From Cetorhinus maximus (taxonomy: Eukaryota), in NCBI RefSeq assembly GCF_964194155.1, contig NC_135903.1, forward strand, positions 1,488,001 to 1,552,000: a stretch of 64,000 nt of DNA. The letters run 5' to 3'. The number at the start of each line of letters is the position of its first letter. Position 1 is the stretch's first letter. Under the pieces are notes generated by a model. That model did not search any database. It was not told the DNA's origin and worked only from the letters and a program-made list of their open reading frames with translations. A program made the translations under genes and the position numbers. Below, piece by piece: positions 19,696 through 64,000 of this stretch.

Positions 19696-19727
19696 ATTAA
19701 CATTGCTCTCTATTCCCTCACTGGCTG

Positions 19728-19900
19728 AGTACATTCCAGAAGTCTCTGGAACGGCTCCAGTGGGTGTCACTGAGTCGAGTCATTCTTGTTTAAAGCAAGG
19801 CTGGGATGAGATGTCATTTATTTGCAGCTCACATGTCATAAACCCAGCAAAGTTGAGTTCATTCTGGAAATGTCTGGGTTTCTGGGAGTAGAATATATAA
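19728..19900 (+). promoter_or_regulatory. hsp30 copy 1 promoter: distal HSE, proximal HSE, TATA box
   Basis: aTTCcaGAAgtCTCtgGAAc at 19733-19752; aTTCtgGAAa at 19861; TATATAA at 19894-19900, 100 bp before the ATG. Confidence 0.85.
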
Positions 19901-19993
19901 GGCGTGTGTTCTGAGTGCTGCAGCAGATCAGAGACTGAAGACTGGGAGTTCACATCAGTCGGTTTGAGAGAAGTGAGAGAAGAGGCAGAGACA

Positions 19994-20656
19994 ATGCTGA
20001 GCTGTCGGGCTTTCCACCCTTCACGTCTGTGCCAGCAGCCAGTGTACACATTGTGGCCTGTTCCACACAGGGTCTGGGAGCCGCTTGAATGCAACACGTG
20101 GAAACAGGTAGAAGAAGTGAGAAAGAGCATGAACTTCATGGAGCGAGTTCTTGAGGAGCTGGCAAAAGCATTTTGGGAGGAAAAACCAAGAAATCAGGAC
20201 AACAGACCTGATGATAATGAAGAAGGTAAAAGACAATCAGAGGACAAGGAGGGAGATGGCTTTTCTCTGTCCCTGGATGTCCAGCGATTCTCTCCAGAAG
20301 AACTGAAGGTGAAAGTACTTGGAAGAAAAGTGCTGGTGACAGGAAAACACGAGAAGAAAAGTGATGATGGCAGCGGCTCTTCCAGCTACAAATATGAAGA
20401 GTTCAGGAGAGAATTTCAGCTGCCAGAAGATGTCGATGCTGAAGCTCTTAACTGCTGTTTGTCACAGGATGGTCGGTTAAAGGTTCAAGCCCCACGCCTG
20501 GCACTGCCAGCTGTGAATGAACGAACCGTGCCCGTCAACATCACCTCGGATACAACAACCAGTCCCCGGCTAAATCCTGGCCAAGAGGCACCGAAACTGG
20601 AGAGTGGGAAGGGTGAGAGGAACAAGGAAGAGCAGGAAGTAAAAATGGACAATTAA
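19994..20656 (+). CDS. HSP30: Small heat shock protein hsp30/HSPB9-like, copy 1 (220 aa, intronless)
   Basis: ATG in acaATGc context (the ORF-track GTG start is too close to the TATA box); alpha-crystallin domain FSLSLDVQRFSPEEL..GKHEKK..FRREFQLP..LSQDGRLKVQAP; VPV motif; next to RAB5C as HSPB9 is in other vertebrates. Confidence 0.93.
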   Translation: MLSCRAFHPSRLCQQPVYTLWPVPHRVWEPLECNTWKQVEEVRKSMNFMERVLEELAKAFWEEKPRNQDNRPDDNEEGKRQSEDKEGDGFSLSLDVQRFSPEELKVKVLGRKVLVTGKHEKKSDDGSGSSSYKYEEFRREFQLPEDVDAEALNCCLSQDGRLKVQAPRLALPAVNERTVPVNITSDTTTSPRLNPGQEAPKLESGKGERNKEEQEVKMDN

Positions 20657-20833
20657 ACCTCATTTACAGTTAACTTTTGTACGACGTAAGAGTGGTTTAT
20701 TTGCAGAAATGAGTTTCTGAGACTATGATATGAAGGCATTATGTTGAAAATTAATTGTTTTCATCTTGTATGTTTGAACTGTGTTGTTAGCCGCGTTCAT
20801 GTGGATTATTTTTATATATATTTATTTTGGAAC

Positions 20834-23143: not shown

Positions 23144-23806
23144 ATGCTGAGCTGTCGGGCTTTCCACCCTTCACGTCTGTGCCAGCAGCCTGTGTACACA
23201 TTGTGGCCTGTTCCACACAGGGTCTGGGAGCCGCTTGAATGCAACACGTGGAAAGAGGTGGAAGAAGCGAGAAAGAGCATGAACTTCATGGAGCGAGTTC
23301 TTGAGGAGCTGGCAAAAGAATTTTGGGAGGAAAAACCAAGAAATCAGGACAACAGGCCTGATGATAATGAAGAAGGTAAAAGACAATCAGAGGACAACGA
23401 GGGAAATGGCTTTTCTCTGTCCCTGGATGTCCAGCGATTCTCCCCAGAAGAACTGAATGTGAAAGTACTTGGAAGAAAAGTGCTGGTGACAGGAAAACAC
23501 GAGAAGAAAAGTGATGATGGCAGCGGCTCTTCCAGCTACAAATATGAAGAGTTGAGGAGAGAATTTCAGCTGCCAGAAGATGTCGATGCTGAAGCTCTTA
23601 ACTGCTGTTTGTCACAGGACGGTCAGTTAAAGGTTCAAGCCCCACGCCTGGCACTGCCAGCTGTGAATGAACGAGTCGTGCCCGTCAACATCACCTCGGA
23701 TACAACAACCAGTCCCCAGCTAAATCCTGGCCAATTGGCACCGAAACTGGAGAGTGGGAAGGATGAGGGGAACAAGGAAGAGGAGGAAGTAAAAATGGAC
23801 AATTAA
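23144..23806 (+). CDS. HSP30: hsp30/HSPB9-like copy 2 (220 aa)
   Basis: Intact ORF, near-identical to copy 1. Confidence 0.93.
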   Translation: MLSCRAFHPSRLCQQPVYTLWPVPHRVWEPLECNTWKEVEEARKSMNFMERVLEELAKEFWEEKPRNQDNRPDDNEEGKRQSEDNEGNGFSLSLDVQRFSPEELNVKVLGRKVLVTGKHEKKSDDGSGSSSYKYEELRREFQLPEDVDAEALNCCLSQDGQLKVQAPRLALPAVNERVVPVNITSDTTTSPQLNPGQLAPKLESGKDEGNKEEEEVKMDN

Positions 23807-26883: not shown

Positions 26884-27543
26884 ATGCTGAGCTGTCGGGC
26901 TTTCCACCCTTCACGTCGGTGCCAGCAGCCTGTGTACACATTGTGGCCTGTTCCACACAGGGTCTGGGAGCCTCTTGAATGCAACACGTGGAAAGAGGTG
27001 GAAGAAGCGAGAAAGAGCATGAACTTCATGGAGCGAGTTCTTGAGGAGCTGGCAAAAGAATTTTGGGAGGAAAAACCAAGAAATCAGGACAACAGGCCTG
27101 ATGATAATGAAGAAGGTAAAAGACAATCAGAGGACAAGGAGGGAGATGGCTTTTCCCTGTCCCTGGATGTCCAGCGATTCTCCCCAGAAGAACTGAATGT
27201 GAAAGTACTTGGAAAAAAAGTGCTGGTGACAGGAAAACACGAGAAGAAAAGTGATGATGGCAGCGGCTCTTACAGCTTCAATTATGAAGAGTTCAGGAGA
27301 GAATTTCAGCTGCCAGAAGATGTCGATGCTGAAGCTCTTAACTGCTGTTTGTCACAGGACGGTCGGTTAAAGGTTCAAGCCCCACGCCTGGCACTGCCAG
27401 CTGTGAATGAACGAATCGTGCCCGTCAACATCACCTCGGATACAACAACCAGTCCCCGGCTAAATCCTGGCCAAGAGGCACCGAAACTGGAGAGTGGGAA
27501 GGATGAGAGGAAAAATGAGGAGGAAGTGAAAATGGACAATTAA
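26884..27543 (+). CDS. HSP30: hsp30/HSPB9-like copy 3 (219 aa)
   Basis: Intact ORF with alpha-crystallin domain. Confidence 0.93.
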   Translation: MLSCRAFHPSRRCQQPVYTLWPVPHRVWEPLECNTWKEVEEARKSMNFMERVLEELAKEFWEEKPRNQDNRPDDNEEGKRQSEDKEGDGFSLSLDVQRFSPEELNVKVLGKKVLVTGKHEKKSDDGSGSYSFNYEEFRREFQLPEDVDAEALNCCLSQDGRLKVQAPRLALPAVNERIVPVNITSDTTTSPRLNPGQEAPKLESGKDERKNEEEVKMDN

Positions 27544-30133: not shown

Positions 30134-30370
30134 AATTGAATTTCACTCTTTTTCATTGATAGATGTGGCTTCAACATCTCAGAAATCAATGAAAACAGCA
30201 ATACTAGAAAGAAAAAGATCGAGTCCTCATTCTCTCATAATATCTGTTCAAAGTTCATTAAGTTAAACGCATCTTATTCTCAGAATATCTCATGTGTTTA
30301 CACTTGCTCTGCCTTCTGTGAGGCTGTCAATCATTAACAATGCTCCTCCCATCTATTCCCTCACTGGCTG

Positions 30371-30543
30371 AGTACATTCCAGAAGTCTCTGGAACGGCTC
30401 CAGTGAGTGTCACTGAGTCGAGTCATTCTTGTTTAAAGCAAGGCTGGGATGAGATGTCATTTATTTGCAGCTCACGTGTCATGAGTCCAGCAAAGTTGAG
30501 TTCATTCTGGAAATGTCTGGGTTTCTGGGAGTAGAATATATAA
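30371..30543 (+). promoter_or_regulatory. hsp30 copy 4 promoter
   Basis: HSEs + TATATAA. Confidence 0.85.
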
Positions 30544-30636
30544 GGCGTGTGTTCTGAGTGCTGCAGCAGATCAGAGACTGAAGACTGGGAGTTCACATCA
30601 GTCGGTTTGAGAGAAGTGAGAGAAGAGGCAGAGACA

Positions 30637-31296
30637 ATGCTGAGCTGTCGGGCTTTCCACCCTTCACGTCTGTGCCAGCAGCCTGTGTACACATTGTGGC
30701 CTGTTCCACACAGGGTCTGGGAGCCGCTTGAATGCAACACGTGGAAAGAGGTGGAAGAAGCGAGAAAGAGCATGAACTTCATGGATCAAGTTCTTGAGGA
30801 GCTGGCAAAAGAATTTTGGGAGGAAAAACCAAGAAATCAGGACAACAAAACTGATGATAATAAAGAAGGCAAAGGACAATCAGACGACAAGGAGGGAAAT
30901 GGCTTTTCTCTGTCCCTGGATGTCCAGCGATTCTCCCCAGAAGAACTGAATGTGAAAGTACTTGGAAGAAAAGTGCTGGTGACAGGAAAACACGAGAAGA
31001 AAAGTGATGATGGCAGCGGCTCTTCCAGCTACAAATATGAAGAGTTCAGGAGAGAATTTCAGCTGCCAAAAGATGTCGATGCTGAAGCTCTTAACTGCTG
31101 TTTGTCACAGGACGGTCGGTTAAAGGTTCAAGCCCCACGCCTGGCACTGCCAGCTGTGAATGAACGAACCGTGCCCGTCAACATCACCTCGGATACAACA
31201 ACCAGTCCCCGGCTAAATCCTGGCCAAGAGGCACAGAAACTGGAGAGTGGGAAGGATGAGAGAAAAAATGAGGAGGAAGTGAAAATGGACAATTAA
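30637..31296 (+). CDS. HSP30: hsp30/HSPB9-like copy 4 (type A, 219 aa)
   Basis: Intact ORF; diagnostic MDQV, DNKTDDNK, LPKD, EAQK. Confidence 0.93.
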   Translation: MLSCRAFHPSRLCQQPVYTLWPVPHRVWEPLECNTWKEVEEARKSMNFMDQVLEELAKEFWEEKPRNQDNKTDDNKEGKGQSDDKEGNGFSLSLDVQRFSPEELNVKVLGRKVLVTGKHEKKSDDGSGSSSYKYEEFRREFQLPKDVDAEALNCCLSQDGRLKVQAPRLALPAVNERTVPVNITSDTTTSPRLNPGQEAQKLESGKDERKNEEEVKMDN

Positions 31297-33264
31297 ATCT
31301 CATTTACAGTTATCTTTTGTAAGAAGTAAGAATGGTTTATTTGCAGAAATGAGTTTCTGAGACCATGAAATGAAGGCTTAATGCTGAAAATGAATTGTTA
31401 ATGTGTAAGTCTGAACTGTGTTGTTATCAGAATTCATGTGGATTATTTTGATATATATGTATTTGGAAAAATAAATACTTTTGAAAATAATAGTGATGAT
31501 TCAGCTTTTTTACCCTGTATAAAGAAACTAAAGTGACTCAGCGGAGAGACTAGACGTTTAGTTCCTATATTCTCAGTGAGGAAAAACATATTTTAATTTG
31601 GATTCACCTAAAACCCAGAGAAAAAATTCTATTTGTCAAGATCTGTCTCCAACTGGTCTCACTCCAGAAAACAATATATCAAATGATTGCACAGACCCAG
31701 TGCACCAAATCTCTGTATTACTCTGCAGCCTGACAATGAGCAGCAACAACAGCTTATCTTCCAACACAGACACCAGACTGGACACCACTCCATTACTGAT
31801 GGTGGAATCCTCTTTCATTGGAGTTACCTGTTCAATTTAAATAATTGGGAGGAAAAGCAAAGTTAGTTGCATTGTAAGCAACTTTTATAAAGTTTCTGTG
31901 AAATAATATTACTGATCCTGTACTATTGAACATAAGAACATCTGGAACAGGAGAATGCGTAGGCCATTCGGCCCCTCAAGCCTCCTTCACCATTCAATGC
32001 ATCACAGTTTACCTAATTCTGGACGTAATTCCACCTTCCTCTCCGTTCCCCACAACCCTTGACTCCATTGTCAATCCAAAATCCATCTAACAGCCTTGAA
32101 TATAATCAAAGACCCAGCACTCCTGCTCACTGTGGAAGAGAGTTCCAATCACAAAGGCCCCTCTGAGAGAAGAAATTTCTCGGCATCTCCATCTTAAGTG
32201 GCAGACCTCTTATTTTTAAAGTGCCTCCTAGTTCTTGATTTCCCCCCTGAGGGAGAACATCCTCTCAGCAGCTATCCTGTCCAGCCCCAAAGAATCTTCC
32301 ACACTTCAGTAAGGGATCTGTATCTTACTGGATCAGTGTGGTGTGTAATATTTCTTGCAGTGTCAGTCAGCAGTTATATTCCTTCAGCAAATTTACTGTA
32401 TGATACTGACGGACAAACAGCTCGTGTGTTTAGGTTGATGCTGGACAGTGGGAAACATCAACAATCGTATCACAGGTTGCGGAATACGTGATTAACACCA
32501 CAGCTTATTTATTTGTTAAAATGTTAAATGGTGTAAAAATGTAAATCCAGCCTCTGAACTTAGTCTGAACCTGGAATCTATTTGATCGTAACGCTGCCAA
32601 AACACACCTGAGAATAAAGATTTATGTTGTAGTTTATAGGAAACTCCTGTGTGTGATGGAAACTCTCATTTACCAATTTAGGAAGTTATGATGTTGAGAA
32701 CTTGGCAACAACATTAATAGGCTGGGCCTTCATATTCATGAATTTAACATAATACAATATAAAATTAAAACATTGCTACATTTTATCAATAATATGTTGT
32801 CAATGTTGATGTTATCAGTGAAGAGACCAGAGGGAAGATGAGCAGTTTTCATTTGTGTTGTTTTTTGTTACTGGAATGGATGGAGTGAAAGGGTAGATTC
32901 TATGGCAACTTTCAATATGGAAAAAGATATATACCTGCAAAGAAATAATTTGCAGAGTTTTGGCGAAAGAGCAGGGAAGTCGGGAGTAATTGGATAGCAC
33001 TTTCAAAGACCTGACATAGGTGTGGTGGACCGAATGGCCTCATTTTGAGCTGAGAGATTCTGGACCTGTCAGTAATTTATTATTAATTTTCTATATTTGC
33101 AAATCTTATATCAAAATACATAATGGACAACATGCTTTAGTAATTATGAATTACACAGCAGCTTTATATGTATCTATTCTGTTTCTAAATCTATGTTATT
33201 AGGATTAGAATGGAATTAATGCCTCAATCCGAACTTCACTCTTACAAAACTGATTTGAATTTCA

Positions 33265-33875
33265 AAAACAAAAACAGAAATACCTGGAAAAACTCAGATG
33301 GTCTGGTAGCATCGGTGGAGAAGAGGACAGTTGACGTTTCGAATCCTCATGACCCTTCAACAGAACTAAGTAAAAATAGGAAATGGGTGAAATATAAGCT
33401 GGTTTAAGGGGGGGTGGGTGGGACAAGAAGAGTTGGATAGAGGGCCAGTGATAGGAGGAGATAACCAAAAGATGTCATAGACAAAAGGAAAAAAGAGGTG
33501 TTGAAGGGAGTGATATTATTTAAAGGAATGTGCTAAGTAAGGGTAGAAAGCAGGACGAGCAAGGTACAGATAGCCCTAGTGGGGGGTGGGGTGGGGTGAA
33601 GGAATACTAAAAAGGCTAAAAAGTAAAGATAAAGTAATGGATGGAAATACATTTAAATATAATGGAAATAGGTGGGAAAGGAAAAATCCATATAAATTTT
33701 GGAAAAAACAAAGAGGGGGGAAAACGGAAAGGGGGTGGGGATGGAGGAGAGAGTTCATGATCTAAAATTGTTGAACTCAATATTCAGTCTGGAAGGTTGT
33801 AAAGTGCCTAGTCGGAAGATGAGGTGCTGTTCCTCCAGTTTGCTTTGAGATTCACTGGAACAATGCAGCAAGCCA
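33265..33875 (-). mobile_element. Penelope-like fragment, spacer 4-5
   Basis: Same insertion and TSD. Confidence 0.85.
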
Positions 33876-34106
33876 ATTTGAATTTCACTCTTTTTCATTG
33901 ATAGATGTGGCTTCAACATCTCAGAAATCAATGAAAACAGCAATACTAGAAAGAAAAAGACCACATTCTCTCATAGAATCTGTTCAAAGTTCATTCAGTT
34001 AAACGCATCTTATTCTCAGAATATCTCATGTGTTTACACTTGCTCTGCCTTCTGTGAGGCTGTCAATCATTAACAATGCTCCTCCCATCTGTTCCCTCAC
34101 TGGCTG

Positions 34107-34279
34107 AGTACATTCCAGAAGTCTCTGGAACGGCTCCAGTGGGTGTCACTGAGTCGAGTCATTCTTGTTTAAAGCAAGGCTGGGATGAGATGTCATTTAT
34201 TTGCAGCTCACGTGTCATGAGTCCAGCAAAGTTGAGTTCATTCTGGAAATGTCTGGGTTTCTGGGAGTAGAATATATAA
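34107..34279 (+). promoter_or_regulatory. hsp30 copy 5 promoter
   Basis: HSEs + TATATAA. Confidence 0.85.
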
Positions 34280-34372
34280 GGCGTGTGTTCTGAGTGCTGC
34301 AGCAGATCAGAGACTGAAGACTGGGAGTTCACATCAGTCGGTTTGAGAGAAGTGAGAGAAGAGGCAGAGACA

Positions 34373-35032
34373 ATGCTGAGCTGTCGGGCTTTCCACCCTT
34401 CACGTCTGTGCCAGCAGCCTGTGTACACATTGTGGCCTGTTCCACACAGGGTCTGGGAGCCTCTTGAATGCAACAGGTGGAAAGAGGTGGAAGAAGTGAG
34501 AAAGAGCATGAACTTCATGGAGCGAGTTCTTGAGGAGATGGCAAAAGAATTTTGGGAGGAAAAACCAAGAAATCAGGACAAGAGACCTGATGATAATGAA
34601 GAAGGGAAAAGACAATCAGAGGACAAGGAGGGAGATGGCTTTTCCCTGTCCCTGGATGTCCAGCGATTCTCCCCAGAAGAACTGAATGTGAAAGTACTTG
34701 GAAGAAAAGTGCTGGTGACAGGAAAACACGAGAAGAAAAGTGATGATGGCAGCGGCTCTTCCAGCTTCAATTATGAAGAGTTCAGGAGAGAATTTCAGCT
34801 GCCAGAAGATGTCGATGCTGAAGCTCTTAACTGCTGTTTGTCACAGGACGGTCGGTTAAAGGTTCAAGCCCCACGCCTGGCACTGCCCGCTGTGAATGAA
34901 CGAACCGTGCCCGTCAACATCACCTCGGATACAACAACCAGTCCCCGGCTAAATCCTGGCCAAGAGGCAGAGAAACTGGAGAGTGGGAAGGATCAGAGGA
35001 AAAATGAGGAGGAAGTAAAAATGGACAATTAA
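34373..35032 (+). CDS. HSP30: hsp30/HSPB9-like copy 5 (type B, 219 aa)
   Basis: Intact ORF; diagnostic CNRW, EEMAK, DKRPDD, SFNY, DQRK. Confidence 0.93.
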   Translation: MLSCRAFHPSRLCQQPVYTLWPVPHRVWEPLECNRWKEVEEVRKSMNFMERVLEEMAKEFWEEKPRNQDKRPDDNEEGKRQSEDKEGDGFSLSLDVQRFSPEELNVKVLGRKVLVTGKHEKKSDDGSGSSSFNYEEFRREFQLPEDVDAEALNCCLSQDGRLKVQAPRLALPAVNERTVPVNITSDTTTSPRLNPGQEAEKLESGKDQRKNEEEVKMDN

Positions 35033-37000
35033 ACCTCAATTACATTTATCTTTTGTACGATGTAAGAATGGTTTATTTGCAGAAATGAGTTTCTGAGACT
35101 ATGAAACAAAGGCTTAATGCTGAAAATGAATTGTTAATGTGTAAGTCTGAACTGTGTTGTTATAAGAATTCATGTGGATTGTTTTTATATATATGTATTT
35201 GGAAAAATAAATACTTTTGAAAATAATAGTGATGATTCAGCTTTTTTACCTTGTATAAAGAAACTAAAGTGACTCAGCGGAGAGACTAGACGTTTAGTTC
35301 CTATATTCTCAGTGAAGAAACACATATTTTAATTTGGATTCACCTAAATCCCAGAGAAAAAATTCTATTTGTCAAGATCTGTGTACAACTGGTCTCAGTC
35401 CAGAAAAAAATATATCAAATTATTGCACAGACCCAGTGCACCACATCTCTGTATTACCCTGCAGCCTGACAATGAGCAGCAACAACAGCTTATCTTCCAA
35501 CACAGACACCAGACTGGACACCACTCAATTACTGATGGTGGAATCCTCTTTCATTGGAGTTACCTGTTCAATTTAAATAATTGGGAGTAAAAACAAAGTT
35601 ATTTGCATTGTAAGCAACTTTTATAAAGTTTCTGTGAAATAATAATACTGATCCTGTACTATTGAACATAAGAACATCTGGAACAGGAGCATGCGTAGGC
35701 CATTCGGCCCCTCAAGCCTCCTTCACCGTTCAATGGATCACAGTTTACCTAATTCTGGCCGTAATTCCACCTTCCTCTCCGTTCCCCATAACTCTTGACT
35801 CCATTGTCAATCCAAAATCCATCTAACAGCCTTGAATATAATCAAAGACCCAGCTCTCCTGCTCACTGTGGAAGAGAGTTCCAATCGCAAACCTCCCTCT
35901 GAGAGAAGAAATTTCCCTGCATCTCCATCTTAAGTGGCAAACCTCTTATTTTTAAAGTGCCTCCTAGTCCTTGACTTCCCCCCTGAGGGAGAATATCCTC
36001 TCAGCAGCTATCCTGTCCAGCCCCAAAGAATCTTCCACACTTCAATAAGGGATCTGTATCTTAATGGATCAGTGTGGTGTGTAATATTTCTTGCAGTGTC
36101 AGTCAGCAGTTACATTCCTTCAGTAAATTTACTGTATGATACTGACGGACAAACAGCTCGTGTGTTTAGGTTGATGCTGGACAGTGGGAAACATCAACAA
36201 TCGTATCACAGGTTGCGGAATACGTGAGTAACGCCACAGCTTATTTATTTGTTAAAATGTTAAATGGTGTAAAAATGTAAATCCAGTCTATGAACTTAGA
36301 CTGAACCTGGAATCTATTTGATCGTAATGCTGCCAAAACACACCTGAGAATAAAGATTTATGTTGTAGTTTATAGGAAACTCCTGTGTGTGATGGAAACT
36401 CTCATTTACCAATTTAGGAACTTATGATGTTGAGAACTTGGCAACAACATTAATAGGCTGGGCCTTCATATTCATGAATTTAACATAATACAATATAAAA
36501 TTAAAACATTGCTACATTTTATCAATAATATGTTGTCAATGTTGATGTTATCAGTGAAGAGACCAGAGGGAAGATGAGCAGTTTTCATTTGTGTTGTTTT
36601 TTGTTACTGGAATGGATGAAGTGAAAGGGTAGATTCTATGGCAACTTTCAATATGGAAAAAGATATATACCTGCAAAGAAATAATTTGCAGAGTTTTGGC
36701 GAAAGAGCAGGGAAGTCGGGAGTAATTGGATAGCACTTTCAAAGACCTGACATAGGTGTGGTGGACCGAATGGCCTCATTTTGAGCTGAGAGATTCTGGA
36801 CCTGTCAGTAATTTATTATTAATTTTCTATATTTGCAAATCTTATATCAAAATACATAATGGACAACATGCTTTAGTAATTATGAATTACACAGCAGCTT
36901 TATATGTATCTATTGTGTTTTTAAACCTATGTTATTAGGATTAGAACGGAATTAATGCCTCAATCCAAACTTCACTCTTACAAAACTGATTTGAATTTCA

Positions 37001-37622: not shown

Positions 37623-37859
37623 ATTTGAATTTCACACTTTTTCATTGATAGATGTGGCTTCAACATCTCAGAAATCAATGAAAACAGCAATACTAGAAAG
37701 AAAAAGACCGAGTCCTCATTCTCTCATAATATCTGTTCAAAGTTCATTCAGTTAAACGCATCTTATTCTCAGAATGTCTCATGTGTTTACACTTGCTCTG
37801 CCTTCTGTGAGGCTGTCAATCATTAACAATGCTCCTCCCATCTATTCCCTCATTGGCTG

Positions 37860-38032: not shown

Positions 38033-38125
38033 GGCGTGTGTTCTGAGTGCTGCAGCAGATCAGAGACTGAAGACTGGGAGTTCACATCAGTCGGTTTGAG
38101 AGAAGTGAGAGAAGAGGCAGAGACA

Positions 38126-46277: not shown

Positions 46278-48245
46278 ATCTCATTTACAGTTATCTTTTG
46301 TAAGAAGTAAGAATGGTTTATTTGCAGAAATGAGTTTCTGAGACCATGAAATGAAGGCTTAATGCTGAAAATGAATTGTTAATGTGTAAGTCTGAACTGT
46401 GTTGTTATCAGAATTCATGTGGATTATTTTGATATATATGTATTTGGAAAAATAAATACTTTTGAAAATAATAGTGATGATTCAGCTTTTTTACCCTGTA
46501 TAAAGAAACTAAAGTGACTCAGCGGAGAGACTAGACGTTTAGTTCCTATATTCTCAGTGAGGAAAAACATATTTTAATTTGGATTCACCTAAAACCCAGA
46601 GAAAAAATTCTATTTGTCAAGATCTGTCTCCAACTGGTCTCACTCCAGAAAACAATATATCAAATGATTGCACAGACCCAGTGCACCAAATCTCTGTATT
46701 ACTCTGCAGCCTGACAATGAGCAGCAACAACAGCTTATCTTCCAACACAGACACCAGACTGGACACCACTCCATTACTGATGGTGGAATCCTCTTTCATT
46801 GGAGTTACCTGTTCAATTTAAATAATTGGGAGGAAAAGCAAAGTTAGTTGCATTGTAAGCAACTTTTATAAAGTTTCTGTGAAATAATATTACTGATCCT
46901 GTACTATTGAACATAAGAACATCTGGAACAGGAGAACGCGTAGGCCATTCGGCCCCTCAAGCCTCCTTCACCATTCAATGCATCACAGTTTACCTAATTC
47001 TGGACGTAATTCCACCTTCCTCTCCGTTCCCCACAACCCTTGACTCCATTGTCAATCCAAAATCCATCTAACAGCCTTGAATATAATCAAAGACCTAGCA
47101 CTCCTGCTCACTGTGGAAGAGAGTTCCAATCACAAAGGCCCCTCTGAGAGAAGAAATTTCTCGGCATCTCCATCTTAAGTGGCAGACCTCTTATTTTTAA
47201 AGTGCCTCCTAGTTCTTGATTTCCCCCCTGAGGGAGAACATCCTCTCAGCAGCTATCCTGTCCAGCCCCAAAGAATCTTCCACACTTCAATAAGGGATCT
47301 GTATCTTACTGGATCAGTGTGGTGTGTAATATTTCTTGCAGTGTCAGTCAGCAGTTATATTCCTTCAGCAAATTTACTGTATGATACTGACGGACAAACA
47401 GCTCGTGTGTTTAGGTTGATGCTGGACAGTGGGAAACATCAACAATCATATCACAGGTTGCGGAATACGTGATTAACACCACAGCTTATTTATTTGTTAA
47501 AATGTTAAATGGTGTAAAAATGTAAATCCAGCCTCTGAACTTAGACTGAACCTGGAATCTATTTGATCGTAACGCTGCCAAAACACACCTGAGAATAAAG
47601 ATTTATGTTGTAGTTTATAGGAAACTCCTGTGTGTGATGGAAACTCTCATTTACCAATTTAGGAAGTTATGATGTTGAGAACTTGGCAACAACATTAATA
47701 GGCTGGGCCTTCATATTCATGAATTTAACATAATACAATATAAAATTAAAACATTGCTACATTTTATCAATAATATGTTGTCAATGTTGATGTTATCAGT
47801 GAAGAGACCAGAGGGAAGATGAGCAGTTTTCATTTGTGTTGTTTTTTGTTACTGGAATGGATGGAGTGAAAGGGTAGATTCTATGGCAACTTTCAATATG
47901 GAAAAAGATATATACCTGCAAAGAAATAATTTGCAGAGTTTTGGCGAAAGAGCAGGGAAGTCGGGAGTAATTGGATAGCACTTTCAAAGACCTGACATAG
48001 GTGTGGTGGACCGAATGGCCTCATTTTGAGCTGAGAGATTCTGGACCTGTCAGTAATTTATTATTAATTTTCTATATTTGCAAATCTTATATCAAAATAC
48101 ATAATGGACAACATGATTTAGTAATTATGAATTACACAGCAGCTTTATATGTATCTATTCTGTTTCTAAATCTATGTTATTAGGATTAGAATGGAATTAA
48201 TGCCTCAATCCGAACTTCACTCTTACAAAACTGATTTGAATTTCA

Positions 48246-48859
48246 AAAACAAAAACAGAAATACCTGGAAAAACTCAGATGGTCTGGTAGCATCGGTGGA
48301 GAAGAGGACAGTTGACGTTTCGAATCCTCATGACCCTTCAACAGAACTAAGTAAAAATAGGAAATGGGTGAAATATAAGCTGGTTTAAGGGGGGGTGGGT
48401 GGGACAAGAAGAGTTGGCTAGAGGGCCAGTGATAGGTGGAGATAACCAAAAGATGTCATAGACAAAAGGAAAAAAGAGGTGTTGAAGGGAGTGATATTAT
48501 TTAAAGGAATGTGCTAAGTAAGGGTAGAAAGCAGGACGAGCAAGGTACAGATAGCCCTAGTGGGGGGTGGGGTGGGGTGAAGGAATACTAAAAAGGCTAA
48601 AAAGTAAAGATAAAGTAATGGATGGAAATACATTTAAATATAATGGAAATAGGTGGGAAAGGAAAAATCCATATAAATTTTGGAAAAAACAAAAAGGAGG
48701 GGGGAAAACGGAAAGGGGGTGGGGATGGAGGAGAGAGTTCATGATCTAAAATTGTTGAACTCAATATTCAGTCTGGAAGGTTGTAAAGTGCCTAGTCGGA
48801 AGATGAGGTGCTGTTCCTCCAGTTTGCTTTGAGATTCACTGGAACAATGCAGCAAGCCA
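48246..48859 (-). mobile_element. Penelope-like fragment, spacer 8-9
   Basis: Same insertion and TSD. Confidence 0.85.
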
Positions 48860-49090
48860 ATTTGAATTTCACTCTTTTTCATTGATAGATGTGGCTTCAA
48901 CATCTCAGAAATCAATGAAAACAGCAATACTAGAAAGAAAAAGACCACATTCTCTCATAGAATCTGTTCAAAGTTCATTCAGTTAAACGCATCTTATTCT
49001 CAGAATATCTCATGTGTTTACACTTGCTCTGCCTTCTGTGAGGCTGTCAATCATTAACAATGCTCCTCCCATCTGTTCCCTCACTGGCTG

Positions 49091-49263
49091 AGTACATTCC
49101 AGAAGTCTCTGGAACGGCTCCAGTGGGTGTCACTGAGTCGAGTCATTCTTGTTTAAAGCAAGGCTGGGATGAGATGTCATTTATTTGCAGCTCACGTGTC
49201 ATGAGTCCAGCAAAGTTGAGTTCATTCTGGAAATGTCTGGGTTTCTGGGAGTAGAATATATAA
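49091..49263 (+). promoter_or_regulatory. hsp30 copy 9 promoter
   Basis: HSEs + TATATAA. Confidence 0.85.
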
Positions 49264-49356
49264 GGCGTGTGTTCTGAGTGCTGCAGCAGATCAGAGACTG
49301 AAGACTGGGAGTTCACATCAGTCGGTTTGAGAGAAGTGAGAGAAGAGGCAGAGACA

Positions 49357-50016
49357 ATGCTGAGCTGTCGGGCTTTCCACCCTTCACGTCTGTGCCAGCA
49401 GCCTGTGTACACATTGTGGCCTGTTCCACACAGGGTCTGGGAGCCTCTTGAATGCAACAGGTGGAAAGAGGTGGAAGAAGTGAGAAAGAGCATGAACTTC
49501 ATGGAGCGAGTTCTTGAGGAGATGGCAAAAGAATTTTGGGAGGAAAAACCAAGAAATCAGGACAAGAGACCTGATGATAATGAAGAAGGGAAAAGACAAT
49601 CAGAGGACAAGGAGGGAGATGGCTTTTCCCTGTCCCTGGATGTCCAGCGATTCTCCCCAGAAGAACTGAATGTGAAAGTACTTGGAAGAAAAGTGCTGGT
49701 GACAGGAAAACACGAGAAGAAAAGTGATGATGGCAGCGGCTCTTCCAGCTTCAATTATGAAGAGTTGAGGAGAGAATTTCAGCTGCCAGAAGATGTCGAT
49801 GCTGAAGCTCTTAACTGCTGTTTGTCACAGGACGGTCGGTTAAAGGTTCAAGCCCCACGCCTGGCACTGCCTGCTGTGAATGAACGAACCGTGCCCGTCA
49901 ACATCACCTCGGATACAACAACCAGTCCCCGGCTAAATCCTGGCCAAGAGGCAGAGAAACTGGAGAGTGGGAAGGATCAGAGGAAAAATGAGGAGGAAGT
50001 AAAAATGGACAATTAA
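49357..50016 (+). CDS. HSP30: hsp30/HSPB9-like copy 9 (type B)
   Basis: Intact ORF; differs from copy 5 by F>L (EELRR). Confidence 0.93.
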   Translation: MLSCRAFHPSRLCQQPVYTLWPVPHRVWEPLECNRWKEVEEVRKSMNFMERVLEEMAKEFWEEKPRNQDKRPDDNEEGKRQSEDKEGDGFSLSLDVQRFSPEELNVKVLGRKVLVTGKHEKKSDDGSGSSSFNYEELRREFQLPEDVDAEALNCCLSQDGRLKVQAPRLALPAVNERTVPVNITSDTTTSPRLNPGQEAEKLESGKDQRKNEEEVKMDN

Positions 50017-51984
50017 ACCTCAATTACATTTATCTTTTGTACGATGTAAGAATGGTTTATTTGCAGAAATGAGTTTCTGAGACTATGAAACAAAGGCTTA
50101 ATGCTGAAAATGAATTGTTAATGTGTAAGTCTGAACTGTGTTGTTATAAGAATTCATGTGGATTGTTTTTATATATATGTATTTGGAAAAATAAATACTT
50201 TTGAAAATAATAGTGATGATTCAGCTTTTTTACCTTGTATAAAGAAACTAAAGTGACTCAGCGGAGAGACTAGACGTTTAGTTCCTATATTCTCAGTGAA
50301 GAAACACATATTTTAATTTGGATTCACCTAAATCCCAGAGAAAAAATTCTATTTGTCAAGATCTGTGTACAACTGGTCTCAGTCCAGAAAAAAATATATC
50401 AAATTATTGCACAGACCCAGTGCACCACATCTTTGTATTACCCTGCAGCCTGACAATGAGCAGCAACAACAGCTTATCTTCCAACACAGACACCAGACTG
50501 GACACCACTCAATTACTGATGGTGGAATCCTCTTTCATTGGAGTTACCTGTTCAATTTAAATAATTGGGAGTAAAAACAAAGTTATTTGCATTGTAAGCA
50601 ACTTTTATAAAGTTTCTGTGAAATAATAATACTGATCCTGTACTATTGAACATAAGAACATCTGGAACAGGAGCATGCGTAGGCCATTCGGCCCCTCAAG
50701 CCTCCTTCACCGTTCAATGGATCACAGTTTACCTAATTCTGGCCGTAATTCCACCTTCCTCTCCGTTCCCCATAACTCTTGACTCCATTGTCAATCCAAA
50801 ATCCATCTAACAGCCTTGAATATAATCAAAGACCCAGCTCTCCTGCTCACTGTGGAAGAGAGTTCCAATCGCAAACCTCCCTCTGAGAGAAGAAATTTCC
50901 CTGCATCTCCATCTTAAGTGGCAAACCTCTTATTTTTAAAGTGCCTCCTAGTCCTTGACTTCCCCCCTGAGGGAGAATATCCTCTCAGCAGCTATCCTGT
51001 CCAGCCCCAAAGAATCTTCCACACTTCAATAAGGGATCTGTATCTTAATGGATCAGTGTGGTGTGTAATATTTCTTGCAGTGTCAGTCAGCAGTTACATT
51101 CCTTCAGTAAATTTACTGTATGATACTGACGGACAAACAGCTCGTGTGTTTAGGTTGATGCTGGACAGTGGGAAACATCAACAATCGTATCACAGGTTGC
51201 GGAATACGTGAGTAACGCCACAGCTTATTTATTTGTTAAAATGTTAAATGGTGTAAAAATGTAAATCCAGTCTATGAACTTAGACTGAACCTGGAATCTA
51301 TTTGATCGTAATGCTGCCAAAACACACCTGAGAATAAAGATTTATGTTGTAGTTTATAGGAAACTCCTGTGTGTGATGGAAACTCTCATTTACCAATTTA
51401 GGAACTTATGATGTTGAGAACTTGGCAACAACATTAATAGGCTGGGCCTTCATATTCATGAATTTAACATAATACAATATAAAATTAAAACATTGCTACA
51501 TTTTATCAATAATATGTTGTCAATGTTGATGTTATCAGTGAAGAGACCAGAGGGAAGATGAGCAGTTTTCATTTGTGTTGTTTTTTGTTACTGGAATGGA
51601 TGAAGTGAAAGGGTAGATTCTATGGCAACTTTCAATATGGAAAAAGATATATACCTGCAAAGAAATAATTTGCAGAGTTTTGGCGAAAGAGCAGGGAAGT
51701 CGGGAGTAATTGGATAGCACTTTCAAAGACCTGACATAGGTGTGGTGGACCGAATGGCCTCATTTTGAACTGAGAGATTCTGGACCTGTCAGTAATTTAT
51801 TATTAATTTTCTATATTTGCAAATCTTATATCAAAATACATAATGGACAACATGCTTTAGTAATTATGAATTACACAGCAGCTTTATATGTATCTATTGT
51901 GTTTTTAAACCTATGTTATTAGGATTAGAACGGAATTAATGCCTCAATCCAAACTTCACTCTTACAAAACTGATTTGAATTTCA

Positions 51985-52607
51985 AAAACAAAAACAGAAA
52001 TACCTGGAAAAACTCAGCAGGTCTGGCAGCATCGGCGTAGAAGAGCACAGTTGACGTTTCGAGTCCTCACGACCTTTCAACGGAACTAAGTAAAAATAGG
52101 AAAGGGGTGAAATATAATCTGGTTTAAGTGGGGTGGGGTGGGGTTGGGACAAGAAGAGCTAGGTAAAGGGCCAGTGATAGGAGGAGATAACCAAAGGATG
52201 TCACAGACAAAAGGAAAAAAGAGGTGTTGAAGGTGGTGATATTATCTAAAGGAATGTGCTCATTAAGGGTAGAAAGCAGGACGAGCAAGGTACAGATAGC
52301 CCTAGTGGGGGGTGGGGTGGGGTGAAGGAATACTAAAAAGGCTAAAAGGTAAAGATAAAGCAATGGATGGAAATACATTTAAAAATAATGGAAATAGGTA
52401 GGAAAAGAGAAATCCATATAAATTATTGGAAAAAACAAAAAGGAGGGGGGAAGAACGGAAAAGGGGGTGGGAATGGAGGAGAGAGTTCATGATCTAAAGT
52501 TGTTGAACTCAATATTCAGTCTGGAAGGCTGTAAAGTGCCTAGTTGGAAGATGAGGTGCTGTTCCTCCAGTTTGCGTTGGGCTTCACTGGAACATTGCAG
52601 CAAGCCA
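51985..52607 (-). mobile_element. Penelope-like fragment, spacer 9-10
   Basis: Same insertion and TSD. Confidence 0.85.
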
Positions 52608-52844
52608 ATTTGAATTTCACACTTTTTCATTGATAGATGTGGCTTCAACATCTCAGAAATCAATGAAAACAGCAATACTAGAAAGAAAAAGACCGAGTCC
52701 TCATTCTCTCATAATATCTGTTCAAAGTTCATTCAGTTAAACGCATCTTATTCTCAGAATGTCTCATGTGTTTACACTTGCTCTGCCTTCTGTGAGGCTG
52801 TCAATCATTAACAATGCTCCTCCCATCTATTCCCTCATTGGCTG

Positions 52845-53110: not shown

Positions 53111-53770
53111 ATGCTGAGCTGTCGGGCTTTCCACCCTTCACGTCTGTGCCAGCAGCCTGTGTACACATTGTGGCCTGTTCCACACAGGGTCTGGGAGCCG
53201 CTTGAATGCAACAGTTGGAAAGAGGTGGAAGAAGCGAGAAAGAGCATGAACTTCATGGAGCGAGTTCTTGAGGAGCTGGCAAAAGAATTTTGGGAGGAAA
53301 AACCAAGAAATCAGGACAACAAAACTGATGATAATGAAGAAGGCAAAAGACAGTCAGAGGACAAGGAGGGAAATGGCTTTTCTCTGTCCCTGGATGTCCA
53401 GCGATTCTCCCCAGAAGAACTGAATGTGAAAATACTTGGAAGAAAAGTGCTGGTGACAGGAAAACACGAGAAGAAAAGTGATGATGGCAGCGGCTCTTCC
53501 AGCTACAAATTTGAGGAGATCAGGCGAGAATTTAAGCTGCCAGAAGATGTCGATGCTGAAGCTCTTAACTGCTGTTTGTCACAGGACGGTCGGTTAAAGG
53601 TTCAAGCCCCACGCCTGGCACTGCCAGCTGTGAATGAACGAACCGTGCCCGTCAACATCACCTCGGATACAACAACCAGTCTCCGGCTAAATCCTGGCCA
53701 AGAGGCAGAGAAACTGGAGAGTGGGAAGGATGAGAGGAAAAATGAGGAGGAAGTAAAAATGGACAATTAA
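53111..53770 (+). CDS. HSP30: hsp30/HSPB9-like copy 10 (219 aa)
   Basis: Intact ORF; private KFEEIRREFK variant. Confidence 0.93.
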   Translation: MLSCRAFHPSRLCQQPVYTLWPVPHRVWEPLECNSWKEVEEARKSMNFMERVLEELAKEFWEEKPRNQDNKTDDNEEGKRQSEDKEGNGFSLSLDVQRFSPEELNVKILGRKVLVTGKHEKKSDDGSGSSSYKFEEIRREFKLPEDVDAEALNCCLSQDGRLKVQAPRLALPAVNERTVPVNITSDTTTSLRLNPGQEAEKLESGKDERKNEEEVKMDN

Positions 53771-56847: not shown

Positions 56848-57471
56848 ATGCTGAGCTGTCGGGCTTTCCACCCTTCACGTCTGTGCCAGCAGCCTGTGTA
56901 CACATTGTGGCCTGTTCCACACAGGGTCTGGGAGCCGCTTGGATGCAACACGTGGAAAGAGGTGGAAGAAGCGAGAAAGAGCATGAACTTCATGGAGCGA
57001 GTTCTTGAGGAGCTGGCAAAAGAATTTTGGGAGGAAAAACCGAGAAATCGGGACAACAGACCTGATGATAATGAAGAAGGTAAAAGACAATCAGAGGACA
57101 AGGAGGGAGATGGCTTTTCTCTGTTCCTGGATGTCCAGCGATTCTCTCCAGAAGAACTGAATGTGAAAATACTTGGAAGAAAAGTGCTGGTGACAGGAAA
57201 ACACGAGAAGAAAAGTGATGATGGCAGCGGCTCTTCCAGCTACAAATATGAAGAGTTGAGGAGAGAATTTCAGCTGCCAGAAGATGTCGATGCTGAAGCT
57301 CTTAACTGCTGTTTGTCACAGGACGGTCGGTTAAAGGTTCAAGCCCCACCCCTGGCACTGCCAGCTGTGAATGAACGAACCGTGCCCGTCAACATCACCT
57401 CGGATATAACAACCAGTCCCCGGCTAAATCCTGGCCAAGAGGCCCCAAAACTGGAGAGTGGAAAACAATGA
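56848..57471 (+). CDS. HSP30: hsp30/HSPB9-like copy 11, C-terminally truncated (207 aa)
   Basis: Frameshift after ESGK gives an early TGA; the ancestral MDN* remnant follows at ~57499-57510. Confidence 0.8.
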   Translation: MLSCRAFHPSRLCQQPVYTLWPVPHRVWEPLGCNTWKEVEEARKSMNFMERVLEELAKEFWEEKPRNRDNRPDDNEEGKRQSEDKEGDGFSLFLDVQRFSPEELNVKILGRKVLVTGKHEKKSDDGSGSSSYKYEELRREFQLPEDVDAEALNCCLSQDGRLKVQAPPLALPAVNERTVPVNITSDITTSPRLNPGQEAPKLESGKQ

Positions 57472-60009: not shown

Positions 60010-60669
60010 ATGCTGAGCTGTCGGGCTTTCCATCCTTCACGTCTGTGCCAGCAGCCTGTGTACACATTGTGGCCTGTTCCACACAGGGTCTGGGAGCCGC
60101 TTGAATGCAACACGTGGAAACAGGTGGAAGAAGCGAGAAAGAGCATGAACTTCATGGAGCAAGTTCTTGAGGAGCTGGCAAAAGAATTTTGGGAGGAAAA
60201 ACCAAGAAATCAGGACAAGAGACCTGATGATAATGAAGAAGGTAAAGGACAATCAGAGGACAAGGAGGGAGATGGCTTTTCTCTGTCCCTGGATGTCCAG
60301 CGATTCTCCCCAGAAGAACTGAAGGTGAAAGTACTTGGAAGAAAAGTGCTGGTGACAGGAAAACACGAGAAGAAAAGTGATGATGGCAGCGGCTCTTCCA
60401 GCTACAAATATGAAGAGTTCAGGAGAGAATTTCAGCTGCCAGAAGATGTTGATGCTGAAGCTCTTAAATGCTGTTTGTCACAGGACGGTCGGTTAAAGGT
60501 TCAAGCCCCACGCCTGGCACTGCCAGCTGTGAATGAACGAACCGTGCCCGTCAACATCACCTCGGATACAACAACCAGTCCCCGGCTAAATCCTGGCCAA
60601 GAGGCACCGAAACTGGAGAGTGGGAAGGATGAGCAAATAAATGAGAACCAAGAAAAAATGGACAATTAA
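60010..60669 (+). CDS. HSP30: hsp30/HSPB9-like copy 12 (219 aa, divergent tail DEQINENQEKMDN)
   Basis: Intact ORF with alpha-crystallin domain. Confidence 0.93.
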   Translation: MLSCRAFHPSRLCQQPVYTLWPVPHRVWEPLECNTWKQVEEARKSMNFMEQVLEELAKEFWEEKPRNQDKRPDDNEEGKGQSEDKEGDGFSLSLDVQRFSPEELKVKVLGRKVLVTGKHEKKSDDGSGSSSYKYEEFRREFQLPEDVDAEALKCCLSQDGRLKVQAPRLALPAVNERTVPVNITSDTTTSPRLNPGQEAPKLESGKDEQINENQEKMDN

Positions 60670-62540
60670 TATTCATATGCAGCAATCATTTGTAAGGTGT
60701 AAGAATGGTTTATATGTAGAAATAAGTTTCTGAGACCATGATATGAAGGAATAATGGACAAAATTAATTGTTTCCAATATTTTCTATATAGTCTGTACTG
60801 TACACTTATCAGCATTCACGTGGATTATTTTTATATATATTTATATTGGAACAATAAATACTTTCAGAAATAATGATGATGATTAAGCTTTTCTGCTTCA
60901 TAAAAACAAAGTGAAAATAAATAACTGAAAATCTAAGCACTTAATTCCTTTACACCCAGTAAAAAAAACACACTTTTAAATTGGATTAACGTAAAACACA
61001 GGGAAAGAATTTGTCATGTCAAAATTTGTCTGAAATTGAACTCAGTCCATTAAAAAATATATCAAACTATTGCACAGACCCTGTGCACCAAATCTCTGTA
61101 TTACCCTGCAGCCTGACAATGAGCAGCAACAACAGCTTATCTTCCAACACAGACACCAGACTGGACACCACTCAATTACTGGATGGTGGAACCTGCTTCA
61201 TTGGGGTTATCTCTTTGAAATTAATAATTAGGAAGGAAATGATGTTGCAAGCATAGTAACTAACTTTTATAAAGTTTCGGTTAAATAATATTGCTGATCC
61301 TGTACCTTTCAACATAAGAACATAAGGAGTAGGAGCAGGCATAGGCCAATTAGCCCCTCCAGCCTCCTTCGCTATTCAATTAGATCATGACTGATTTTAT
61401 TGTAGCTTTAACTCCATTTTCCTGTCAGTCCCCCGTAACCCGACCCCATTGTCAATCAAAAATCTGTCAAACAACCTTCAATATATTCATGACCCAGCCG
61501 CCACTGCTCACAGTGGAAGAAAATTACAAACATCATCCACCCTCTGAGAGAAGGAATTTTGTCTCATCTCCATCTTAAATGGCATACCTCTTATTTTTAA
61601 ACTGCCCCTTGTTCTTGATTTCCCCATAAGGGGCAACATCCTCTCAGCACCTACCCTGTCAAAGAATCCTACACGTTTCAATAAGGAATCTGTATCTTAC
61701 AGTATCAGTATAATGTATAATATTTCTTGCAGCGTCAGTCAGCAGTTATGTTACCTCAGGAACTTTACTGTAAACACCTCGTGTGTTTAGGTTGATGCTG
61801 GGCAGTGGGTAACATCAACAATCGTATGACAGGTTGCAGGATACATGAGCAATGCCACAGCTTATTTATTAGTTAAAAAGTTAAATGGTGTACAAATATA
61901 AAATCAGACTATGAACTTATACTAAACCTGGGTTTCATCGCAATGCTGCCAAAACGCACTTGGGAATAAAGATTTATGTTGCAGATCAGAGGAATCTCTT
62001 GTGTGCGATGGAAACTGTCATTTACCAATTTAGAAAATTGTGACGTGGGGAGCTTTGCAACAACATTACTGGTAGGCCCTTCATTTTTATGAATTTAATA
62101 TAATAGTGTAGAAAATTCAAACTTTGCTATATTTAATCTACAATATGTTGTCAATGTTGATGTTATGCATGAAGAGACCAGAGGGAAGATGAACTGTTTT
62201 CATTTGTGTTGTTTTTTGTTACTGGAATGGAAGATGTGAAATGGTAAATTCAATGGCAGCTATCAAAATGGAAAAGGATATATACCTACAAAGAAATAAT
62301 TTGCAGAGTTTTGGCGAAAGAGCAGGGGAGTTGGGAGTAATTGGATAGCACTTCCAAAGATCTGAGACAGGTGTGGTGGACCGAATGGCCTCATTTTGAG
62401 CTGAGAGATTCTAAATTAATTGGTAACTTATTATTAATTTTCTATATTTTCAAGTGTCATGTCAAAACATATAACAAACAACAGATTGTAGTAATAGTGA
62501 AGTACACAGCAGCTCTATTTGTAACTACTCCATTTTTAAA

Positions 62541-63449
62541 TGGTACAAAGATAGGTAGGACACTTACGTTGTCAAGATGACACAAGAAGGTGACAAAAGG
62601 CTATAGATGAGTTAGGTGAGTGGGCAAAGATCTGGCAAATGGAGTACAATGTGGGAAAAGGTGAGGTTGTCCATTTTGGCAGAATGAATAAAAAAGAGGC
62701 ATATTATCTAAATGGTGAGAGATTGCAGAGCTCTGAGATGCAGAGGGATCTGGGTGTCCTAGTGCATGAATCACAAAAGGCAGCTATGGAGGTGCAGCAA
62801 GAAATTAGCAAAGCTAATACAATGTTGCGAGGGGAATTGTATACAAAAATAGGGAGGTTATGCTCCTGTTATACAGAATATTGTTGAGATCACATCTGAA
62901 GTACTGTGTACACTATTGGTCTCCATGTTTAAGGAAAGATAGGCATGCATTTGAAGTGGTTCAGAGAAGGTTTACCAGATTTATACCTGGAATAGGCAGG
63001 TTTTCTTATGAGGACAGGCTAGGCTTGTACCTACTGGAGTTTCAAAGAGGAAGAGGCGACTTCATTGAAACATATAAGATCCTGAGAGGATTTGACAGGG
63101 TGGATGTGCAGAGAACGTTTCCTCTTGTGGGAGAATCTAGAACTAGGGGCCATTGTTTAAAAATAAGGGGGCGTCCATTTTAGGCAGAGGTGAGGAAATT
63201 CTTTATTCTCCCAGAGGATTGTGAGACTTTGGAATTCTCTTCTTCAAAAGATAGTTGAGGCAGACTCTTTGAGTATTTTTAAATCAGAGGTAGATAGATT
63301 CTTGATAATCAAGGGGTGAAAGGTTATCAGGGGTAGGCAGGAATGTGGAGTTGAGGTTACAATCAGATCAGCCATGATCTTATTGAATGGCGGAGCAGGC
63401 TCGAGGGGCCGAGTGGCCTACTCCTGCTCCTAATTCATATGTTCATATG
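62541..63449 (+). mobile_element. CR1 LINE 3' fragment unique to spacer 12-13
   Basis: ORF fragments WQMEYNVGK.EVVHFG and YCVHYWSP..VQRRFTR..RGDFIETYKIL; ggggccgagtggcctactcctgctcct..tatgttcatatg tail. Confidence 0.9.
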
Positions 63450-63770
63450 CAGATATATATTACCATTATCATAAGGGAAATAATGCTCCTCAATTAGACA
63501 CAATCAGAACTTCATTTGGCCTAAACTAAACTGATTTGAATTTCACTCCTTCGCACTCTGCTCAATATCACTTTAACAAGGTACAAATTACTGAAAACAG
63601 CAAAGCTAGAAAGCCAAAGACCGAGTCCTCATTCTCATAATATCTGTTCAAAGTTCATTCAGTTAAACGCATCTTATTCTCAGAATATCTCATGTGTTTA
63701 CACTTGCTCTGCCTTCTGTGAGGCTGTCAATCATTAACAATGCTCCTCCCATCTGTTCCCTCACTGGCTG

Positions 63771-64000
63771 AGTACATTCCAGAAGTCTCTGGAACGGCTC
63801 CAGTGGGTGTCACTGAGTCGAGTCATTCTTGTTTAAAGCAAGGCTGGGATGACATGTCATTTATTTGTAGCTCACGTGTCATAAACCCAGCAAAGTTGAG
63901 TTCATTCTGGAAATGTCTGGGTTTCTGGGAGTAGAATATATAAGGCGTGTGTTCTGAGTGCTGCAGCAGATCAGAGACTGAAGACTGGGAGTTCACATCA
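63771..64000 (+). promoter_or_regulatory. Promoter and 5' UTR of hsp30 copy 13 (ATG expected ~37 bp beyond the window)
   Basis: HSEs, TATATAA at 63937-63943, and 5' UTR matching the other copies. Confidence 0.88.

Follow-up and report, generated by a model that had tools for sequence, protein, structure and literature searches.

We analyzed a 64-kb window of the basking shark (Cetorhinus maximus) genome, that is, the whole stretch G000:C26:1488001-1552000 within a 3.99-Gb genome, and the array of hsp30-type small heat-shock protein (sHSP) genes that it contains. The window carries 12 intact intronless open reading frames (ORFs) of 207 to 220 amino acids (aa), all on the + strand and 3.1 to 4.0 kb apart, and a 13-copy repeat family that includes a 13th promoter at ~63700-64000. 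ORF and repeat analysis of the window confirmed the 12 intronless sHSP ORFs and the 13th promoter described in the initial annotation; its count of at least 13 copies became 20 intact copies when the analysis was extended past the window, where KAT2A and a DHX58-like exon were also found.

Layout, products, and promoters of the array

The whole locus comprises 14 ORFs on the + strand, a 14-kb gap, and six ORFs on the - strand, with the two arms facing each other, and the gene order is RAB5C, array, KAT2A, DHX58. A whole-genome DNA search returned 21 matches, all on C26 inside ~90 kb, the 21st being an old inverted pseudogene. There are no assembly gaps within the array. A search of the 14-kb inter-arm gap gave spacer-type and repeat matches only, with no further hsp30 coding match, and Tandem Repeats Finder reported nothing relevant, the array period being above its limit. 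The copies, labeled c01 to c20, are located as follows (window positions, or contig positions where marked C26):

15854..16567, - strand: old inverted hsp30 pseudogene, with no ATG-led full ORF and with 3'-end frameshifts
19994..20656, + strand: hsp30 copy c01, 220-aa ORF
23144..23806, + strand: hsp30 copy c02, 220-aa ORF
26884..27543, + strand: hsp30 copy c03, 219-aa ORF
30637..31296, + strand: hsp30 copy c04 (type A), 219-aa ORF
34373..35032, + strand: hsp30 copy c05 (type B), 219-aa ORF, Pfam HSP20 at residues 85-182
38126..38785, + strand: hsp30 copy c06 (type A), 219-aa ORF
41865..42524, + strand: hsp30 copy c07 (type B), 219-aa ORF
45618..46277, + strand: hsp30 copy c08 (type A), 219-aa ORF
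49357..50016, + strand: hsp30 copy c09 (type B), 219-aa ORF
30237..52710, + strand: three A-B dimers of ~7.49 kb each (c04 to c09), from sequence comparison
53111..53770, + strand: hsp30 copy c10, 219 aa, a mosaic with an A-type upstream flank and different promoter and coding variants
56848..57471, + strand: hsp30 copy c11, 207 aa, with a short C-terminal tail
60010..60669, + strand: hsp30 copy c12, 219-aa ORF
63762..64000, + strand: promoter of c13, at the right edge of the window
C26:1552037-1552696, + strand: c13 ORF, beyond the window
C26:1557162-1557824, + strand: c14 ORF, beyond the window
between C26:1572002 and 1586236, - strand: inverted arm c15 to c19, beyond the window
C26:1591090-1591737, - strand: end copy c20, at the KAT2A-side end, beyond the window

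The 20 copies encode 19 distinct proteins of 207 to 231 aa. Nineteen copies are 89 to 100% identical to each other, and c20 is 82 to 88% identical to those 19. The inverted pseudogene, the c13 ORF, seven further ORFs (six of them inverted), and the A-B dimers were absent from the initial annotation. In 11 of the 12 copies in the window, an antisense ORF of 119 aa (e.g., window 19780-20139, - strand) spans the promoter and the initial codons; it is probably a by-product of the repeat.

Small heat-shock proteins are oligomeric, ATP-independent holdases. The Pfam HSP20 profile (PF00011) matched c05 with an E value of 6e-20 (71.6 bits vs. a cutoff of 20.8), and the 20 full copies scored 62 to 75 bits against it. 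The C-terminal I/V-x-I/V motif is present, VPV at 179-181 aligning with the IPI of alpha-B-crystallin; in 16 sequences, P180 was invariant and position 181 nearly invariant. All 66 matches of a single-sequence search were shark, ray, or tortoise HSP20-domain proteins, mostly with hsp30- or hspb11-like names. In a profile search, the best 120 of 184 matches were all HSP20-domain proteins, nearly all of them from jawed vertebrates and with hsp30-, hspb11-, or sHSP-like names, and added turtles, amphibians, lungfish, coelacanth, and paddlefish. Tortoise hsp30C scored 114 bits compared to 69 for alpha-B-crystallin, the best solved sHSP, and HSPB1-8 scored far lower. Every one of the 20 copies is a single ORF with an intronless coding region, which is a feature of the HSP30/hspb11 subfamily. 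Judged by its sequence, the array protein is an hsp30/hspb11-type small heat-shock chaperone. The named nearest relatives, together with bit scores above those of crystallins, bear out the hsp30-type identity proposed earlier, and the nearest named proteins, from basking shark and white shark, agree with the proposed shark origin. The tree described below includes amphibian, turtle, lungfish, coelacanth, and paddlefish hsp30, with no crystallin outgroup among its rows.

Passages in two papers describe hsp30 as possibly limited to egg-layers, or to teleosts (PMC5101479, PMC8945262); the shark, ray, turtle, and amphibian matches are at odds with those passages. A second alpha-crystallin cluster lies at G000:C13:58.23-58.68 Mb, with at least six divergent ORFs (35 to 44 bits, open frames of 167 to 669 aa) that have long low-complexity tails, Cys/Pro-rich or repeat-bearing.

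We searched the promoters for motifs, which in c01 are placed as follows:

19734..19751, + strand: distal four-unit heat-shock element of c01
19861..19900, + strand: proximal heat-shock element (ATG-132) and TATA box (ATG-100) of c01

Nineteen of the 20 copies, 13 of them in the window, have the distal four-unit element at ATG-260 (-259 in c02 and c16); in c20, one unit is lost. The motif TTCnnGAAnnYTCnnGAA occurs 13 times in the window vs. a mean of 0.03 in 100 shuffles, although the 13 are copies of one element and not independent. The proximal element, which is shorter than the distal one, and TATATAA at ATG-100 (-99 in c16) are present in 20 of 20 copies. The earlier statement that every copy has its own heat-shock elements and TATA box is upheld by these counts. 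Words resembling heat-shock elements also occur at ~16990-17070, near the inverted pseudogene. Contigs from two runs guessed to be RNA (organisms B and C) cover the coding region, with none over 35103-35407, and one also spans promoter positions 34065-34390. DNA or read-through is a possible source of these contigs; hence, they are not counted as expression evidence.

Divergence along the unit and exchange between copies

The copies resemble each other over a block of ~900 bases, from ~ATG-275 to ~+620, with a sharp fall-off on both sides; the flanks of many copies differ by 20 to 40%. Across the 20 copies, the mean pairwise difference was 0.9% in -100..0 and 0.6% in codons 1-29, then 4.4% in -275..-100, 5.2% in codons 30-85, and 3.0% in the alpha-crystallin domain, and it reached 20% in the 3' untranslated region (UTR) and 26% upstream of -275. 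The promoter, 5' UTR, and first ~29 codons had been called almost invariant, a description that fits -100..+87 best; the distal promoter shows no more uniformity than the coding region. A special uniformity of the 5' end is supported in part: c20 has 0 private bases in the 222 bases of -120..+102 vs. 4 to 8% elsewhere. For the other copies, the proportion of synonymous differences (pS) is 1.4% in codons 1-29 vs. 3.9 to 8.7% elsewhere, the former based on ~20 synonymous sites, too few to separate conversion from selection.

Among the A-B dimers, like units (c04 to c09) have 7 to 17 differing sites per 3.75 kb (99.5 to 99.8% identical, or 0.2 to 0.5% diverged), mostly substitutions rather than indels, and A and B units are ~96% identical. 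These central dimers are the sole recent part of the array.

Copies c14 (+) and c17 (-) are identical over 531 bases (-90 to +440), flanked by sequence with 18 to 36 differences per 100 upstream and 16 to 49 downstream. In nine other copy pairs examined, the longest identical runs were 115 to 369 bases. The nearest-neighbor copy shifts between segments, and four-gamete incompatibility grows with distance (p 0.0005), with a minimum of 17 to 18 recombination events. The inverted pseudogene is 64 to 81% identical to the live copies at its 5' end (~30% diverged) and 94 to 100% identical over approximately codons 67 to 150, which suggests a recently converted block over the domain. Gene conversion among the copies is visible as a pattern in the alignments because the c14/c17 tract, the segment-wise neighbors with their distance-dependent incompatibility, and the pseudogene block all bear its mark.

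Age of the array and competing explanations

We placed the copies in a tree of 153 rows: the 20 copies, 121 named shark and ray proteins, and 12 outgroup rows. The tree omits one protein of <160 aa, five partial or draft-assembly proteins, unnamed contig proteins, this species' database entries, and most turtle and amphibian matches. Each of 12 other shark and ray species has at least 5 to 14 distinct proteins, mostly on one contig per species, among them Carcharodon (14), Chiloscyllium punctatum (14), Heptranchias (13), Scyliorhinus canicula (9), Pristiophorus (9), Hemitrygon (9), and Hemiscyllium (8). All these counts are lower bounds, given that 10 of 66 clusters were opened, with at most 15 members listed for each; a few rows are annotated isoforms.

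The proteins cluster by lineage. Label changes on the tree number 36, where 28 is the lowest possible count and shuffling gave 120.7 on average; support by the Shimodaira-Hasegawa-like approximate likelihood ratio test (SH-aLRT) is 99 for the lamniform bulk and 100 for the orectolobiform clade. Identity within a species exceeds identity to this genome in eight of the nine species compared, the exception being Carcharodon, and at the level of order and family, paralogs are closer within than between lineages. The earlier proposal of concerted evolution gains support from this clustering and from the conversion tracts between diverged flanks. An hsp30 array is likely a general feature of shark and ray genomes and not special to one shark. 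We rejected a link to warm-bodied lamniform physiology, since catsharks, bamboo sharks, and rays have many copies as well.

In the tree, the end copy c20 is joined to a single white-shark protein (99 SH-aLRT); catsharks, bamboo sharks, Mustelus, and Heterodontus have outlier copies of a similar kind. A tail of NKKG or NKKA is found in 7 of the 141 shark and ray rows, one per species (c20 and six other sharks). Two sets, each of three species-disjoint pairs, were compared: sites 1-205 favor each copy's own lineage by 54:4 and 46:1, and the gap-free tail sites place the end copies together by 4:0 and 3:0. Lineage-specific N-terminal residues are common to bulk and end copies. These data fit c20 being an old fixed member that has been overwritten except at its tail.

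As a check on copy number, we compared contig k-mer depths in run X1. The core promoter/first-codon contig had a depth of 1600 and the pseudogene contig 108, a ratio of 14.8 vs. 16.9 expected from the assembly, and the 3' contig gave a ratio of 5.0 vs. 6.0 expected. The pseudogene contig, which serves as the single-copy yardstick, matches the pseudogene at 7 substitutions and a deletion and has one extra variant. Contig depth argues against gross copy-number inflation only.

Taking these data together, we think it very probable that the locus is an array of 20 intronless hsp30-type genes lying between RAB5C and KAT2A, with sequence exchange among the copies. The genes are likely induced by heat, and the array has likely held several copies from an early point in the evolution of sharks and rays. 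Under this explanation, HSF1 would bind both heat-shock elements of each short unit, and many intronless templates would fire together, so that an ATP-independent holdase chaperone would be supplied quickly and in large amounts. Unequal crossing-over inside each head-to-tail arm would alter copy number and would recently have made the three A-B dimers, while conversion, also between the inverted arms, would keep the ~900-base block uniform. The flanks outside the block would drift and gather transposon pieces, edge copies would partly escape conversion or decay, and c20 would receive conversion over most of its length and keep its own tail. Purifying selection also acts and probably explains part of the 5' uniformity.

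Several points count against this explanation. Heat inducibility is predicted from promoter motifs. Four-gamete counts are open to inflation by recurrent mutation, and a ratio of nonsynonymous to synonymous differences (pN/pS) of 0.56 over codons 1-205, and of 0.96 at codons 183-205, implies that constraint on single copies is loose. The tree is a quick search without bootstrap and does not cleanly separate this species' bulk copies from Carcharodon, and clustering by lineage would, taken alone, also be expected if expansions had occurred independently several times. For other species, the end copies were picked by sequence (tree position and tail) and not by map position, and their tail signal consists of three to four gap-free sites per set. 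Regarding copy number, the mid-gene contig ratio in run X1 was 6.7 vs. 11 to 12 expected, a misfit (~57%); contig k-mer depth is no copy number, and X1 is possibly the assembly's own sample. Differences among the dimers are about as few as might separate alleles, so the exact number of dimers could be an assembly error.

A birth-and-death process, with independent expansions in each order, strong purifying selection, and little true gene conversion, is unlikely. It would account for the existence of the pseudogene and the shortened copy c11, and for the promoter and N-terminus being conserved between species (over 34223-34581, ~360 bases, a contig of organism B has 7 differences, of which six are listed at >=34456). 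The synonymous sites in codons 1-29 are too few for a test of this reading. However, selection cannot yield 531 identical bases in opposed copies with diverged flanks, a 94 to 100% identical block inside a dead copy, or the lineage-specific N-terminal residues that bulk and end copies have in common.

That one or two genes were recently amplified in this species alone, under selection for chaperone dosage, we regard as quite unlikely and already largely refuted. In favor of this reading are the near identity of the three A-B dimers (7 to 17 sites per 3.75 kb) and a count of 20 copies, which exceeds the number of distinct proteins in every other species of the tree (14 at most), although the other-species counts are lower bounds. 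Most sharks and rays sampled have multi-copy sets, the flanks of many copies differ by 20 to 40%, and the locus itself holds a 30%-diverged pseudogene and an end copy that is shared with Carcharodon (99 SH-aLRT) and apparently common across galeomorph orders. The recent dosage amplification first proposed for the whole array thus applies to the central dimers c04 to c09 and not to the array as a whole, which is multi-copy in 12 other species.

An assembly-inflated copy number, with dimer haplotypes laid in tandem and a much smaller true array, would suit the 99.5 to 99.8% identity of like dimer units and the one of three depth ratios at ~57% of expectation, but it is very improbable given at least 16 copies with clearly different flanks or variants, a locus without a gap, and a core contig at ~15 times the depth of the pseudogene contig, though that run may be the assembly's own sample.

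Flanking genes, HSPB9, and related systems

The array of exchanging hsp30 copies is bordered by the following genes:

844-995, 2747-2869, 3022-3115, and 4509-4624, + strand: last four coding exons of RAB5C, the left anchor of the locus
C26:1607186-1619484, + strand: KAT2A exons, with domain exons starting 15 kb past c20
C26:1718285, + strand: DHX58-like exon, ~100 kb beyond KAT2A

For the exon at 2747-2869, 40 of 41 residues agree with RAB5C (73.7 bits vs. 70.4 for RAB5A and 65.2 for RAB5B). KAT2A was assigned with 110.7 bits vs. 79 for its paralog on C3, and its likely first exon is ~11 kb from c20. The RAB5C-KAT2A-DHX58 synteny that had been proposed is supported by these exon matches on both sides of the array.

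Mobile elements occur in and around the locus. A broken non-LTR (long terminal repeat) retrotransposon, typed by eye only, lies at G000:C26 ~1.687-1.691 Mb (-), between KAT2A and the DHX58-like exon, with an ORF1-like frame of 519 aa and endonuclease- and reverse-transcriptase-like frames. At window 12267-14549 (-) is a broken long interspersed element (LINE), which we take to be CR1/L2-like, with an endonuclease domain and reverse-transcriptase-like pieces; a similar element sits within unit c13 (G000:C26:1553699-1555747, +). Two inverted copies of a short interspersed repeat occupy window 19199-19668, with 190-base arms that are 89% complementary and 90 bases between them, and this pair stops just ahead of the conserved promoter block of c01.

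Mammalian HSPB9 is single-copy, and human HSPB9 presumably points away from KAT2A, as c20 does. The shark genes occupy the position expected of an HSPB9 ortholog, between RAB5C and KAT2A and next to DHX58, and number 20 where an ortholog would be expected to be single-copy. Mammalian HSPB9 was absent among the matches listed (66 from the single-sequence search and the best 120 of 184 from the profile search). Human KAT2A (17:42113108-42121358) adjoins HSPB9 (17:42121431-42123352) according to coordinates given in PMC5473753, a gene list for cattle has the order DHX58, KAT2A, HSPB9, RAB5C (PMC12075139), and HSPB9 appears in a passage of PMC12081433 as a 159-aa testis-specific protein. In PMC5101479, one section assigns an "HSPB9-like" domain to hsp30/hspb11 relatives and to HSPB9 of human and mouse alike; from gene order and this common domain label, we infer a possible HSPB9 orthology.

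A more specific scenario is conceivable, though we hold it to be doubtful: c20 would be a fixed anchor gene that predates the separation of the galeomorph shark orders and is the positional counterpart of mammalian HSPB9. Ancestral jawed vertebrates would have had a converting hsp30 array plus this anchor; sharks would have kept both, and in mammals the heat-inducible array would have disappeared and the anchor alone would have survived, as a testis gene. If true, this would settle the origin of HSPB9 and why mammals seem to be without hsp30.

A literature search, with most subscription papers outside its reach, found no description of a shark hsp30 array; automatic database names have already been given to the relatives and to at least some of the array copies. 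That stress-gene clusters evolve in concert is known from earlier work, such as the dipteran study in PMC3071340, and the process itself is textbook. The locus makes a clean test case: its assembly is complete, its two arms are opposed, tracts of conversion can be seen, and variants tell the copies apart. Such a vertebrate stress-gene array could serve to measure conversion and to test whether the dose of hsp30 differs between thermal habitats. The array also links hsp30 to the position of mammalian HSPB9 through gene order.

Compared to known systems, the shark genes are most like the vertebrate HSP30 subfamily (Xenopus hsp30C/D, salmon HSP30, fish hspb11, and chicken HSP25 and HSP30C-like), with an alpha-crystallin domain and ~220 aa; the Xenopus hsp30 genes are also clustered and heat-inducible. 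Unlike these relatives, the shark locus has twenty copies, two opposed arms, and higher-order dimers. With mammalian HSPB9, as mapped in the sources cited above, the array has its neighborhood in common (RAB5C, KAT2A, DHX58), but it consists of 20 genes of 207 to 231 aa with strong heat-shock elements. The dipteran hsp70 clusters, as portrayed in passages of PMC3071340, are likewise tight stress-gene clusters with coding sequences homogenized by conversion and variable spacers, with transposon insertions near 3' ends and pseudogenes in a related species. The shark array differs from them in belonging to another chaperone family, in being vertebrate, and in having an end copy that apparently persists and has a tail of its own.

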